A DNA stretch of 64,000 nucleotides from positions 64,001 to 128,000 of the forward strand of contig CBDBLX010000002.1 in NCBI GenBank assembly GCA_965207445.1, given 5' to 3'. The position numbers were made by a program. The DNA is from Nitrosopumilus sp. Its GTDB lineage: Archaea; Thermoproteota; Nitrososphaeria; Nitrososphaerales; Nitrosopumilaceae. Position 1 is the first letter of the stretch, and each line of letters opens with the position of its first letter. Of the stretch, positions 40,401 to 43,400 are shown piece after piece.

Positions 40401-43400
40401 GTTGATTCGCTGCAGTGCCACCCGCAGCCTACCTGTCAAAACTACCGACTGGTAATCATCGCGCAGTGCAAAAGAAGGTCCACCAGTCGGGTATTCTTCA
40501 TTACTCCCACGTATTATTTCATAACCAAGTGTCTCTAGCACGGATAAAGCATGTTCCTCCACATCTGATTCTGAAATTTGATTTATCATTTCTGGGCCAT
40601 CGTTTGGATTCTAATTTTTCCTGACAAGAGTTTTGGTAACAGCATGTCGCGTATGTTTGTTAATGATCTAGATGTGTATGTATTAGTCCTTATACATTTA
40701 TCGTATGCTGACAAATGTGTTTCAAATTGATGAATTAAATTGATAGGTGGTTCAACTGTCAATATATTTTCAAGTTGTTTTTTAGTAACAGCACCAAATA
40801 CAGTACCCATTGATTCGTATTGTTTTAGATCCTTTTGTAATGACCACATGTAATAATATGTAAATGATCTTGAATTTGTTTTATGTCTAATTGCTACAAT
40901 TCCTCTCCCTATACAACATGTTTCCCAAGCCATGTTTATTGCTCCAACAGGAGCTCTAACACTGATCAATGTATCATCTGTATGCACAATACAAGTGGGT
41001 TCTGTACAATATTTTCGATTTGTAGGGTATCTTAACCCAAAATCAGCACTACCTTGAAAGAATGGCAGTCCATTTTGTTCATCATTATATGTGTCGCTTG
41101 GTGGCGATTGGCCCATAACTAAATCAAAACAGTTTTCAAGCACATTTGTTTTCCACCCTTCTGGAATCATGCCTAGTTCTGAATCGACCAATGTATCTGG
41201 AAATAAATCATAGGCAGTTGATGGCAATCCTGGAAGTGATTGTCCTCGTTTCCAGCGCCCATCCATCTTGGCACGAACAGGCTCAAAATTTACAAACCAT
41301 GACTTGAACAACCTACGTGCAATTCTCTCCATGGTTTGGTTCATTTTGTTGTTTAATTCTATTTTAGAGTCAAGGTCAGAAAGAATTTTGGCAATTGCAT
41401 TTTGTTCTTGTATTAACGGTATGGTAATATTTATTTTTTTAAATATATCATTTTTAACTCTCTGTCTATCAGAAGTTCCAGTCATAGATTTTATAGCAAT
41501 ATCTCGCACCATAGTAGTTCTAGATAAATAATAAACAAAAATGGAATCAAGACGTTTATCTTTGGGCGCCAATATTATGAATTCCGTTGAACCCGCTCCA
41601 ATTTCATCTTTATCTAAAAAATCCACATAAGCGGTTTTTCCGTTTTCTAAACTTGGAGTAATTCGTGCAAAGAGAATATCACCATTTTGAAATTTTGATC
41701 CACTTGAGTAATTTTTTATTGTGTAATTTGAAATTTTTCGAGTAAAGGGTTTAAGATTTTCCATACTAACAAATTTCACAATGGTGTCTTTTTTTAAATT
41801 TCTTTTAGGGTCAATGTCAATCACATCACTAAATACTGCATGGATCCAGTTTTTTGGAGTAAATGTAGTTTCATTGGATTGTATTTTTGAGTTATTATTT
41901 TGGTTAGCAAACAGCAATGGTATTTTTTGTGCATTTATAATTTTTTTAAAGTTACTACTAATCGTTCTAAGATCAACAATATCTACAGTGTAAGGAAGAT
42001 TCGAATCATCAAACTCAATACTCATGTTTATCATAACATCATAGTCAATAGGTTGGGTACCCTCCACTGCAAGATCCAAATCGGATCCATCATGCGTGGT
42101 CCATTTTGCTCTGCTTCCAAACACCCAAACTCGTGTATTAGGTAGTAGGTACTTACGCAGTATGTCCAATATTATTTCCAATGAATCAGGACTAATATCA
42201 ATTGGATTTGGCAAGTAAATTATTCAACTCCTAGAAATTTTGCGTGTGTTTTTTGTAGTTGTATCAACTTTTGAATTTTTAGTTTTTTTGGAATCGGCAT
42301 CAATATCACGTAATTTAGATTGAAGTCTTTTGATCTCGAATTCAATATTCTTTCTCGCAGATTTCGGGGTTATTGGAGGTGAATCGGCTTGAGCATTTTG
42401 CAAACTAGACAGTGTGTATTGAGCTTCGAGTAAAAAATCAGATGCAGCTTCAAAAACACATTGTGCTTTTTCTTCATTGTATGTGTGACTAGTAATTCCA
42501 CGATTTTTTCGATACTGATCCCAATAATAAACATCAGATCGAATGAGATTTTTTTTGTACGCTTCACGAACAATGTCTTTGAAATTCATAGAGGCGACTT
42601 CTGCAGGGTTAAATAATGTCATTCCCAAATGTCGTTTGATCATTCTGAGGGTCATCTCATATGTAAATTCAAAAGCTTGTATGACTGCACCGCGCATGTA
42701 TATTTTGTATTTTGGTTTTTCTTGTATTAGTTCATAGTACGCATCTAGTGCATTTTCAAGTTGGTTAATTGCCTTTGCCAACGATGTAACATCAAGACTC
42801 ATTGTTTACTCCGCTTTATATCAAATTCTAGATTTTTTATGTTTTATGTAATTGCAGCATCTAGATTTTTGGATTTTGTTTGGAGTTCGCCCCACTGCAA
42901 TGCTAATTGTTGCATTTTTTCCTCAAAAGATTCTTTTTCATCTGATTGGGATTCGACACCTACGTCAGTAGTTTGCAATGTGCCAATTTTTAATGATCTT
43001 ATTTCTAATTATGCAGCGCGGCAGATTTACTATGTCAAGTAACTACCGTGCTCCAATTCCCACCGAAGCAGTCTTCTGATCAATCCGGCAATTGAATCCA
43101 TAAATAATCCATTGTAAATAATTTTTCATCTCAGTAGTTCAAAAAGTAAATCAGTGTTTGAGTCCGGATTCAGGTACATTGTCACCACATGTCGCGTGTC
43201 AGGTCAGTGACACGATTGCGAGGTAGAAAACACATGTATCGTACAGATGAACAGGCGGGTTTGCAAGCCCGATTCGGCACGCCACAACATGACGTGCGCA
43301 GGCGGAGGCCCGGTTTTTATCTTCCCGTGATTTGGCACGTCGTATTTTGTATTGTGCTTGCGGTATTTTTGAGGCAAGATATCACCTGATGTCTTCCAAA

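Follow-up and report, generated by a model that had tools for sequence, protein, structure and literature searches.

Why does the specificity subunit of a type I restriction-modification (R-M) system carry an antitoxin-like domain, and what does this domain have to do with the HEPN gene that precedes it? The question is raised by a locus in the window analysed here, a stretch of 64,000 nucleotides from a Nitrosopumilus sp. genome (contig CBDBLX010000002.1, positions 64,001 to 128,000), in which an hsdS gene is fused to a minimal nucleotidyltransferase (MNT) domain. HEPN/MNT is regarded as one of the most abundant toxin-antitoxin modules. Type I R-M systems, for their part, form the classic first line of defence. 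To our knowledge, PrrC is almost the sole worked example of an RNase that backs up such a system.

The HEPN gene and the MNT::HsdS fusion

The two adjacent genes and the parts of the fusion are located in the window as follows.

42224..42802, minus strand: HEPN gene of the HI0074 / NTase_sub_bind family, 192 aa, ATG start, TGA stop
40586..42214, minus strand: MNT::hsdS fusion gene, one open frame of 542 aa, TTG start
41900..42214, minus strand: MNT domain, residues 1 to about 105 (Pfam Polbeta and NTP_transf_2)
41840..41899, minus strand: low-complexity linker between MNT and HsdS, about residues 106-125 (from the translation and the poorly conserved columns of alignment A1)
40586..41839, minus strand: HsdS part, with TRD1, central conserved region, TRD2 and C-terminal conserved helix (Methylase_S, PADLOC)

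The HEPN protein matches NTase_sub_bind (PF08780) over residues 4-135 (4.3e-26) and passes the TIGR01987 model with 74.2 bits against a cut-off of 55.8. PF08780 is its only Pfam domain and is followed by a low-complexity, K/S-rich C-terminal tail of about 50 aa, which is restricted to the window locus and its allele on the other haplotype. A preliminary description of this DNA had placed a HEPN gene with an intact Rx4H motif directly upstream of the fusion; we recovered both frames, and the two strings that it quoted, VWVFGSRAKWTTHDGSDLDLAV and RGITSH, are present in the translations. The complete motif, R101-x4-H106-x-Y108 (RGITSHTY), conforms to RX4HXY. Among 25 partner HEPNs (alignment A2), the R..H pair is kept in 23, and R, H and the tyrosine corresponding to Y108 are each kept in at least 90%. 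In the partner HEPNs of loci L052 and L055, RX4H has been lost, yet the MNT motifs of both loci are intact; this pattern hints at a possible further role of the MNT domain besides the neutralisation of an RNase. Profile searches against PDB matched the HEPN protein to HI0074 (1jog, 6e-39) and to a Legionella HEPN toxin (8xdj, 2e-21).

The fusion protein is likewise as the preliminary description had it, an MNT domain joined in one open frame to a complete HsdS with two target-recognition domains (TRDs). Pfam detects Polbeta (PF18765) at residues 28-100 (7.3e-11), NTP_transf_2 at 13-93 (8.6e-07) and two stretches of Methylase_S (PF01420), the better of which lies at 134-296 (1.4e-26). The PADLOC Specificity_I models also match, with PDLC03138 covering residues 5-534, and the conserved central and C-terminal HsdS regions are visible in alignment A1. 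The nucleotidyltransferase motif reads G33-S34-x10-D45-L-D47 (GSX10DXD), together with the carboxylates D78 and D81; across 41 aligned fusion proteins, G33, D45, D47, D78 and D81 never vary and S34 is present in at least 90%. In PDB, the domain matched HI0073 (1no5, 5e-15) and the Legionella MNT (8xeh_E, 6e-6). Its score with the NCBIfam equivalog model of MntA_antitoxin (NF047752) is 44.2 bits, below the cut-off of 60, and by this model it is a relative rather than an equivalog. The translation of the linker contains no in-frame Met able to start a free HsdS.

The two genes lie on one strand with the toxin gene first, and 9 nt separate the HEPN stop from the fusion start. In the consulted part of Yao 2020 (PMC7641770), class I HEPN/MNT pairs are defined operationally by a PF01934 or PF08780 HEPN with RX4HXY next to an MNT with GSX10DXD; judged by its domains and motifs, the window pair belongs to this class.

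Recurrence and gene order

The preliminary description had reported the fusion in at least 62 other proteins. Its search with residues 1-135 was reproducible, returning 63 of 297 candidates at E<=1e-5, all 63 with PF18765 and PF01420; the count drops to 61 foreign proteins when those of the window and of the other haplotype are removed. As a measure of family size, about 62 is a large underestimate: of the 150 nearest cluster representatives (clustered at 50% identity), 117 combine MNT and HsdS, and Pfam confirms the combination in 50 of the top 75. At E<=1e-10 there are 689 hits. One of the clusters (P0041) may be a triple fusion, and another (P0062) is a HEPN-MNT protein with a degenerate motif.

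Gene order was compared across 80 genome loci. A HEPN gene stands directly upstream on the same strand in all 22 loci with a fused hsdS, each of which has GS..DxD, and in only 3 of the 58 unfused loci (Fisher p = 8.5e-17, for loci that are not phylogenetically independent); in these three the module itself is split or rearranged, with an in-frame stop (L045), separate genes (L066) or the order MNT-HEPN-hsdS (L046). Typically the genes run hsdM-HEPN-MNT::hsdS-(variable defence cargo)-hsdR. Wherever the available flank of a fused locus extends far enough, hsdM is found upstream on the same strand, and in 17 of the 22 the available flank contains hsdR. The cargo between hsdS and hsdR varies (TIR, Abi_C, RhuM, AAA_21 with DUF4276, AAA_14/DUF4143), and the fused loci, this gap included, have no conserved fourth gene such as a de-AMPylase. 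In the bacterial loci the HEPN stop and the fusion start overlap. Fusion of MNT to HsdS persists among TRDs that are very divergent and in three or more divergent subgroups of MNT. These comparative data show that the arrangement of HEPN and MNT::HsdS is conserved and non-random.

The cassette has also spread widely by horizontal transfer. The host is an archaeon, and as the domain was found in none of 60 relatives, the cassette was probably acquired horizontally here. In Zymomonas mobilis ATCC 10988, the cassette is carried in canonical order by plasmid pZMOB01. The plasmid-borne hsdS of Zymomonas strain ZM4, which was deleted with normal growth (Lal et al. 2021, PMC8432527), was considered as a test of toxin-antitoxin addiction and rejected. 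ZMOp32x028, of 1122 nt, encodes 373 aa, and ZMOp32x027 is on the opposite strand (PMC5930841, supplement file 2). The primers of Lal et al. are absent from the 7.7-kb stretch of pZMOB01 that carries the cassette. The ZM4 system therefore has no MNT fusion, and the deletion data do not apply.

Haplotypes, erosion and decayed cassettes

The assembly holds two haplotypes of the locus, one on the contig of the window (C2) and one on another contig (C1). Further elements of the window enter here.

40359..40589, minus strand: hsdR stump, 76 aa, 68% identical to residues 9-79 of the C1 HsdR
42844..42978, minus strand: remnant of an HsdM C-terminus, 44 aa, 58% identical over 38 aa to residues 443-480 of the HsdM at C2:894373-897786
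42962..43502, no strand: intergenic MITE-like dispersed repeats, with inverted copies at 40094-40161 and 45207-45297 flanking the genes
43620..45206, plus strand: complete hsdM, 528 aa (Pfam N6_Mtase, 2.8e-111, and HsdM_N)
29246..30606, minus strand: second, decayed cassette in canonical order (hsdM fragment, HEPN, broken MNT::hsdS)
30196-30606, minus strand: hsdM C-terminal fragment of the second cassette
29768-30199, minus strand: intact orphan HEPN of the second cassette, RGTTSHTY
29246-29726, minus strand: broken MNT::hsdS of the second cassette, MNT remnant 66-68% identical to the fusion

Both haplotypes have the order HEPN, fusion, hsdR that had been described, with a full hsdR of 1037 aa on C1 and a genuine stump on C2. 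The report that the HsdS alleles are about 38% identical also holds: they share 38% over 561 columns within surroundings of 95-99% identity (blastn, C2 against C1), and residues 300-355 are identical in both alleles whereas the TRDs differ. The start of the hsdR stump overlaps the hsdS stop, and degraded hsdR homology runs on to about 40195. The HsdM remnant lies 41 nt upstream of the HEPN start in the canonical orientation, is interrupted by a dispersed repeat and has a 70% match at the nucleotide level. The complete hsdM is divergent from HEPN-MNT::hsdS, in an identical arrangement on C1. Of the operon previously proposed, the adjacency of HEPN and fusion on one strand stands; hsdM lies on the opposite strand and so outside it. 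The window system is partly eroded, its hsdR being a stump and its original upstream hsdM gone, and this copy may therefore work only as a methylase and a toxin-antitoxin pair.

The repeats invited a reading as an inverton, that is, a switch of specificity or phase, formed by the pairs 40094-40161/43435-43502 and 42984-43055/45207-45278. We rejected it, because both pairs belong to dispersed families, of about 20 and at least 50 copies genome-wide; the 170-nt element has about 50 copies or more and the 68-nt element 20 or more.

The same genome holds two cassettes, at window positions 29246-30606 and at C2:894373-897786, in which MNT::hsdS has been lost and the HEPN frame with its RX4HXY is intact. 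In the former, the MNT remnant contains two TAG stops on C2, and on C1 the match is split over two reading frames. Its orphan HEPN differs between the haplotypes by four non-synonymous changes, among them Q43L, and one synonymous change. Because two cassettes without MNT::hsdS retain intact HEPN frames, loss of MNT::hsdS in cis was survived; either the remaining MNT::HsdS protects in trans, or the orphan HEPNs are silent or decaying.

Possible roles and relation to known systems

We favour the explanation, at a probability of about 0.45, that a class I (type VII) HEPN/MNT pair from the HI0073/HI0074 subfamily has been incorporated into a type I R-M operon, and that its RNase would be silenced by AMPylation and act in the manner of PrrC. 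The putative RNase gene occupies the normal meeting point of hsdM and hsdS, and the specificity subunit appears to have gained an adenylyltransferase antitoxin as its N-terminal domain. In the most likely mechanism, this MNT domain would keep the RNase silent by AMPylating Tyr108 of RX4HXY. Since the antitoxin would be physically part of every methylase or restriction complex, the activity of the RNase would depend on how much of the complex there is or on its state. Should the complex be inactivated, titrated or no longer made, the RNase would provide a second line of defence through abortive infection or an arrest of growth, in the way that PrrC acts with EcoprrI. The analysis shows the domain composition, the catalytic motifs, the conserved synteny and the wide horizontal spread; toxicity, AMPylation, physical tethering and the trigger are inferred. 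Several considerations weigh against this explanation: a type VII antitoxin is catalytic, so that tethering is unnecessary for neutralisation; the loci contain no conserved de-AMPylase that could reactivate an AMPylated HEPN; the partner HEPNs of L052 and L055 have lost RX4H beside intact MNT motifs; the fusion scores below the MntA_antitoxin cut-off; the HEPN fusions noted by Anantharaman 2013 follow a different logic; and the genome contains two orphan HEPN genes without a cognate MNT as well as an eroded R-M system. A tentative elaboration is that the S subunit serves as a guarded sensor, the HEPN being AMPylated only while M2S1 or R2M2S1 is intact and unperturbed, in what would be a widespread, cross-phylum guard resembling PrrC. 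AMPylation would then cease, and the RNase be unleashed, when phage anti-restriction proteins (DNA mimics) act or the S subunit is proteolysed or shut off; the antitoxin would be an enzyme domain borne by the guarded protein itself, and in this archaeon a single MNT::HsdS might also restrain the two orphan HEPN toxins.

The preliminary description had instead proposed a toxin-antitoxin lock, in which the pair stabilises the R-M locus or replicon and, because HsdS carries the antitoxin, a cell whose hsdS is lost or truncated would die. The anatomy on which it was based stands, as does the linkage (22 of 22 fused against 3 of 58 unfused loci). The toxin-first order with a 9-nt spacer here and overlapping stop and start in bacteria, the lack of an internal start for free HsdS, and the behaviour of a mobile, sporadic element (plasmid-borne in Zymomonas mobilis ATCC 10988, carried by 0 of 60 relatives) all agree with addiction; furthermore, C2 has lost hsdR, yet HEPN and MNT::hsdS are intact. 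The two cassettes of the same genome that keep a HEPN frame without MNT::hsdS, however, speak against strict lethality. Moreover, the lock would not prevent joint deletion of HEPN and hsdS, a catalytic antitoxin would leave AMPylated toxin behind after gene loss, so that post-segregational killing is expected to be weak, and the consistent embedding among other defence genes speaks for defence rather than plain maintenance. We therefore consider the lock rather improbable, and PrrC-like coupling is at least as good a fit to these facts.

The hsdM-hsdS junction is a known hot spot for inserted genes, and an ordinary HEPN/MNT pair might have inserted there and lost its MNT stop, the fusion being tolerated and meaningless for restriction. 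The split and reordered forms (L045, L066 and L046) and the many unrelated genes inserted in type I loci (PMC3710099, in the part consulted) can be read in this way; against this, the fusion persists across divergent TRDs and MNT subgroups and dominates the nearest clusters (117 of 150), and a neutral fusion would be expected to revert or decay more often. We regard a mere passenger as unlikely. Very improbable, in our view, is the idea originally held for HI0073/HI0074, here a two-subunit nucleotidyltransferase that regulates restriction, with HEPN as the substrate-binding subunit and, for example, HsdM, HsdR, DNA or a small molecule as the target. The 'substrate binding' names of the HEPN family in Pfam and NCBIfam and the MNT motifs retained in L052 and L055 beside a HEPN without RX4H would suit it, but RX4HXY is kept in 23 of 25 partners, and in the closest relative to have been characterised, an RNase toxin, the motif tyrosine is AMPylated by the partner MNT (PMC11586414, as consulted).

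On the PrrC-like explanation, an AMPylating antitoxin within the DNA-recognition subunit offers a concrete, testable wiring of a toxin-antitoxin pair to R-M, and suggests that the HEPN/MNT trigger should be sought in the state of the S subunit or methylase complex. This layout, repeated in many unrelated microbes, probably links suicide or back-up defence to the restriction enzyme, and pZMOB01 of Z. mobilis ATCC 10988 is a tractable, non-pathogenic model for the cassette. The finding also bears on annotation, in which fused S subunits are at present plainly "restriction endonuclease subunit S" and the toxin gene is a "substrate-binding subunit".

Both halves of the pair find their best sequence matches in Haemophilus influenzae HI0073/HI0074 (PDB 1no5 / 1jog), which are free-standing, whereas the window MNT is fused to HsdS. 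The function of HI0073/HI0074 is only a proposed one, that of a two-subunit nucleotidyltransferase. Shewanella oneidensis HepT presumably belongs to another HEPN family than the window protein, judging by the families listed for class I. Its MntA, of 139 aa, matches the window MNT weakly (5e-4) and has no R-M link. The HepT/MntA pair nevertheless shares GSX10DXD and RX4HXY with ours and provides the mechanism assumed here, neutralisation by polyadenylylation of the motif tyrosine (PMC7641770, in the sections consulted). Canonical HEPN/MNT pairs, in the consulted part of PMC3710099, have the antitoxin first, whereas the window pair has the toxin first. Closer is the type VII pair lpg2920/lpg2921 of Legionella pneumophila (Jin et al. 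2024, PMC11586414), on the sections consulted: its HEPN is of the same subfamily, its genes are closely coupled with the toxin first, its MNT is likewise a short form, which lacks the alpha4 helix of MntA, and this MNT AMPylates Y105 of RX4HXY, a tyrosine that the window HEPN possesses as Y108. The Q-x-x-E pair proposed as the Mg site in the Legionella work aligns with Q42/E45 here. The Legionella MNT is, however, a free protein of 108 aa rather than the N-terminal domain of a type I HsdS, and the consulted sections mention no R-M context.

PrrC-EcoprrI resembles the fused loci in that the gene of a HEPN-type RNase is embedded in a type I hsd operon; type Ic R-M proteins control the activity of this RNase, which steps in once a phage has disabled restriction (PMC3710099 and PMC3632139, parts consulted). 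PrrC nevertheless has an ABC-type NTPase domain, lacks an MNT partner and is kept silent by associating non-covalently, whereas the window RNase is a minimal 140-aa HEPN without NTPase whose control would be enzymatic, through AMPylation by a domain of HsdS. The window module is thus not a member of PrrC, and the likeness is one of predicted function. Coupling of HEPN to R-M on the PrrC model is itself an established idea of comparative genomics (PMC3710099, part consulted). The HEPN fusions in the consulted part of Anantharaman 2013 involve only nuclease or helicase subunits, and since coupling here would run through the S subunit and the antitoxin, its logic differs. The HEPN-R-M and single-chain MNT-HEPN fusions in the consulted parts of PMC3710099 and PMC13000451 share with our module the theme of a HEPN RNase wired to restriction, or of fused toxin and antitoxin halves; in those cases the toxin sits on the R subunit or is joined to its antitoxin, whereas here the antitoxin sits on S and the toxin is separate. 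An MNT::HsdS fusion was not found described in the literature searched for it, which included passages or sections of PMC3710099, PMC3632139, PMC2701414, PMC12839542, PMC13000451 and PMC12255300, with PMC3710099 Additional file 1 as a possible place of mention. MNT::HsdS is a variant of the known HEPN/MNT and HEPN-R-M themes, with the antitoxin placed on the S subunit.

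The HEPN gene and the MNT domain of HsdS

This type I restriction-modification (R-M) locus contains a HEPN gene and, nine bases past its TGA stop, an hsdS gene whose first ~105 residues form an MNT domain. The features discussed here are as follows (window coordinates unless a contig is named).

40094-40161, 42962-43502 and 45207-45297: MITE-like dispersed repeats
40359-40589: hsdR stump, 76 aa, overlapping the hsdS stop
40586-42214, minus strand: MNT::hsdS, 542 aa, TTG start
42224-42802, minus strand: HEPN gene, 192 aa, ATG start, TGA stop
43620-45206: hsdM, complete, divergent on both haplotypes
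29246-30606, minus strand: second, decayed cassette, with an hsdM C-terminal fragment, an intact HEPN of 143 aa (RGTTSHTY) and the remnant of a broken MNT::hsdS
C2:894373-897786 (locus L091): third cassette, with hsdM overlapping an intact HEPN (RGITSHTY), then IS66-family transposase frames in the MNT::hsdS position

Residues 4-135 of the HEPN protein match NTase_sub_bind (PF08780, 4.3e-26), and the protein falls in the HI0074 family of NCBIfam (74.2 bits, cut-off 55.8). The fusion protein carries Polbeta/NTP_transf_2 at residues 13-100, followed by two Methylase_S stretches (Pfam); its N-terminus is related to MntA antitoxins but stays below threshold (44.2 bits, cut-off 60). Profile matches link the HEPN protein to HI0074 (1jog, 6e-39) and the Legionella pneumophila HEPN toxin (8xdj, 2e-21), and the MNT domain to HI0073 (1no5, 5e-15) and the Legionella MNT (8xeh_E, 6e-6). 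Both motifs cited in the preliminary description are present: GSX10DXD in the fusion (G33-S34-x10-D45-x-D47) and RX4HXY in the HEPN protein (R101-x4-H106-x-Y108). No in-frame Met occurs near the MNT/HsdS domain boundary in the translated fusion; therefore, HsdS is predicted to be producible only with the MNT attached. The HEPN protein also ends in a K/S-rich basic tail of ~50 aa (residues ~138-192; window 42224-42390, minus strand), which is shared by the allele on C1, the alternative-haplotype contig, and is missing from all 23 other aligned homologues, both same-genome paralogues included.

The MNT residues W30, G33, R35, W38, S44, D45, L46, D47, D78 and D81 are the same in all 41 aligned fusions, and at least 90% of these retain S34, while the target-recognition domains (TRDs) vary freely. 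At least 90% of 25 partner HEPNs retain each of R101, T104, H106 and Y108; RX4HXY is lost only in those of loci L052 and L055, where the MNT motifs are still intact.

The cassette in other genomes

HMMs for MNT, HsdS and HEPN, together with an alignment, were applied to 80 loci; these were the top-ranking of 580 relatives and thus not a random sample. MNT and HsdS share one frame in 22 of the 80, and in all 22 a HEPN frame on the same strand lies just 5' of the MNT start, ending between 7 nt inside it and 60 nt before it; overlapping pairs were scored by reading coordinates, as the automatic adjacency flag missed them. A HEPN was found in only 3 of the 58 remaining loci (p = 8.5e-17, Fisher's exact test, related loci not being independent): in L045 an in-frame stop separates MNT from HsdS, in L066 HEPN and MNT are separate genes with hsdS 0.9 kb later, and in L046 (Treponema, 4097-6215) the order is hsdM-MNT-HEPN-hsdS, with a free MNT. 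The usual order of the fused loci is hsdM-HEPN-MNT::hsdS-(0-4 kb)-hsdR. hsdR was found in 17 of them, four others end at contig ends, and in L009 none was found within 5 kb. The cargo of the hsdS-hsdR gap varies (AAA_21+DUF4276, TIR proteins, AAA_14/DUF4143, RhuM, Abi_C, PIN, M78+DUF4411, transposases), and no conserved fourth gene was found there in the fused loci. Two tandem HEPN genes precede the fusion in L012 (Vicinamibacteria, 4127-4989), and the metagenomic cluster representative P0041 has HEPN, MNT and HsdS in a single frame; its C-terminus looks frameshifted, and the protein may therefore be an artefact of sequencing.

Among cultured organisms, Zymomonas mobilis ATCC 10988 has the cassette on plasmid pZMOB01 (hsdM 30878-32470; HI0074 family 3-392; S subunit 389-1972; hsdR 1969-5154), with both motifs intact. 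The HsdS experiment in Zymomonas ZM4 was set aside as evidence on the fusion, as that HsdS is a different, unfused protein.

With fusion residues 1-125 as query, an exhaustive profile-free search returned 3384 cluster representatives at E<=1e-3, of which 689 also reach E<=1e-10. A length of 450-699 aa is seen in 81 of the best 150; by a manual count of Pfam output, Polbeta and Methylase_S occur together in 50 of the best 75. Custom HMMs built from the fusion alignment A1 assigned the best 150 to MNT + HsdS (117), MNT alone (32; 103-284 aa, many probably fragments) and HEPN + MNT (1). The word-index search of the preliminary description was reproduced exactly, 63 of 63 proteins having both domains, but it undercounts the family. 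The PADLOC S-subunit model PDLC03138 covers residues 5-534 of the fusion, and thus the MNT domain too, and the RefSeq name for the Zymomonas fusion is plain "restriction endonuclease subunit S"; the architecture is therefore present in catalogues without comment. It is not described in the literature searched, although other papers or supplements may mention it.

Three cassettes and two haplotypes in an archaeal host

The host is an archaeon, as its SSU rRNA scores higher with the archaeal model (1453 bits) than with the bacterial one (1082 bits). A search of 60 relatives (36 from the host's genus, 24 from its order) found this MNT domain in none at E<=1e-5, whereas all 22 fused loci found are bacterial (by record title, Chloroflexota/Dehalococcoidia, Acidobacteriota, several Proteobacteria, Verrucomicrobiota, Rhodothermales, Poribacteria, Latescibacterota, a WWE3 candidate-phylum bacterium and others); horizontal acquisition of the cassette is therefore the simplest reading of these distributions.

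The genome holds three cassettes. The second keeps the canonical order, its hsdM fragment overlapping the HEPN start, and its MNT remnant is 66-68% identical to the MNT of the intact fusion; a transposase/integrase fragment lies nearby at 31370-31801. Its orphan HEPN (29768-30199) differs between haplotypes by four non-synonymous changes and one synonymous change, which are very small numbers; they include Q43L, at a position that aligns with the proposed Mg-site glutamine. In the third cassette the toxin-type gene is an orphan that follows an hsdM which appears intact.

At the intact fusion, the flanks are 95-99% identical between haplotypes, and divergent sequence runs from mid-HEPN to the hsdR start. 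Identity between alleles is 72% over 156 aa for HEPN and about two thirds for the MNT domain; the HsdS alleles have unrelated TRDs and an identical central conserved region. The hsdR stump on C2, the contig carrying the window, aligns at 68% identity with residues 9-79 of the HsdR on C1, which is full-length (1037 aa). Just downstream of that hsdR, C1:101162-102939 encodes an IS4-type DDE transposase (400 aa) and a methyltransferase fragment (177 aa); C2 lacks the 4.8 kb containing both, as well as most of hsdR, a pattern consistent with an IS-associated deletion. The end of the MNT, the linker and the start of TRD1 in the C1 hsdS (C1:107364-107735) match the second-cassette remnant (window 29321-29690) at 84.6% over 376 nt, with identity across ~55 aa, whereas the C2 allele resembles the remnant across the MNT part only (77.7%). 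The comparison suggests that gene conversion has occurred in the past between the active hsdS and the silent remnant.

The C-terminus of another HsdM survives as a 44-aa remnant 41 nt upstream of HEPN, in canonical orientation and interrupted by a dispersed repeat. The space between HEPN and hsdM is filled with repeats, which also lie on either side of the genes. A locus-specific switch formed by these inverted repeats was rejected, since the families have tens of genome-wide copies (at least 50 of a 170-nt element and at least 20 of a 68-80-nt element); they are MITE-like insertions. Three further copies, 90-94% identical, exist of a 280-nt element at about 43122-43402. An AAA_14/DUF4143 ATPase gene adjoins hsdM (45593-47014, minus strand) and matches the PADLOC candidate system PDC-S01; members of this family also occupy the hsdS-hsdR gap of two bacterial fused loci (L026, L034). 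Just past this gene (47042-47275) are two 49-nt direct repeats, 90% identical and 71 nt apart, then three tandem 34-nt units.

The coupling and its characterised relatives

Given the composition, the conserved motifs, the strict synteny and the fact that both halves match one cognate pair, the HEPN protein and the MNT domain very likely work together as a pair, and these features also suggest that fusion to HsdS is under selection; a fusion carried as a neutral passenger, or a nucleotidyltransferase role other than toxin-antitoxin, is less likely. For the purpose of the coupling, we favour by analogy an arrangement like that of PrrC-EcoprrI, in which an anticodon nuclease is held latent by a type Ic R-M enzyme (as outlined in PMC3710099, section 10, and in the relevant part of PMC3632139). 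The MNT of the S subunit would AMPylate the HEPN RNase and hold it silent, and the RNase would turn active once the R-M complex is disabled or its production stops.

The preliminary description proposed instead a lock, in which tying the MNT to HsdS makes hsdS loss lethal. Most of the evidence is common to the lock and the PrrC-like arrangement, but the lock meets two difficulties: two cassettes in the same genome retain the HEPN frame without MNT::hsdS, and joint deletion of HEPN and hsdS would not be blocked. The one intact MNT::HsdS could protect the orphan HEPNs in trans, in which case its gene would be indispensable; alternatively, the orphans may simply be decaying.

By the operational definition set out in the part of Yao et al. 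2020 concerned (PMC7641770), the pair is, on its sequence features, class I HEPN/MNT, from which it departs in that the MNT is the N-terminus of an HsdS. For the Legionella HEPN-MNT pair, the relevant sections of Jin et al. 2024 (PMC11586414) describe a toxin gene placed first with an 8-bp overlap, a short MNT without helix alpha4, AMPylation of the HEPN at Y105 in RX4HXY and RNase activity of the toxin against rRNA; the gene order and the short MNT form are common to that pair and the present cassette.
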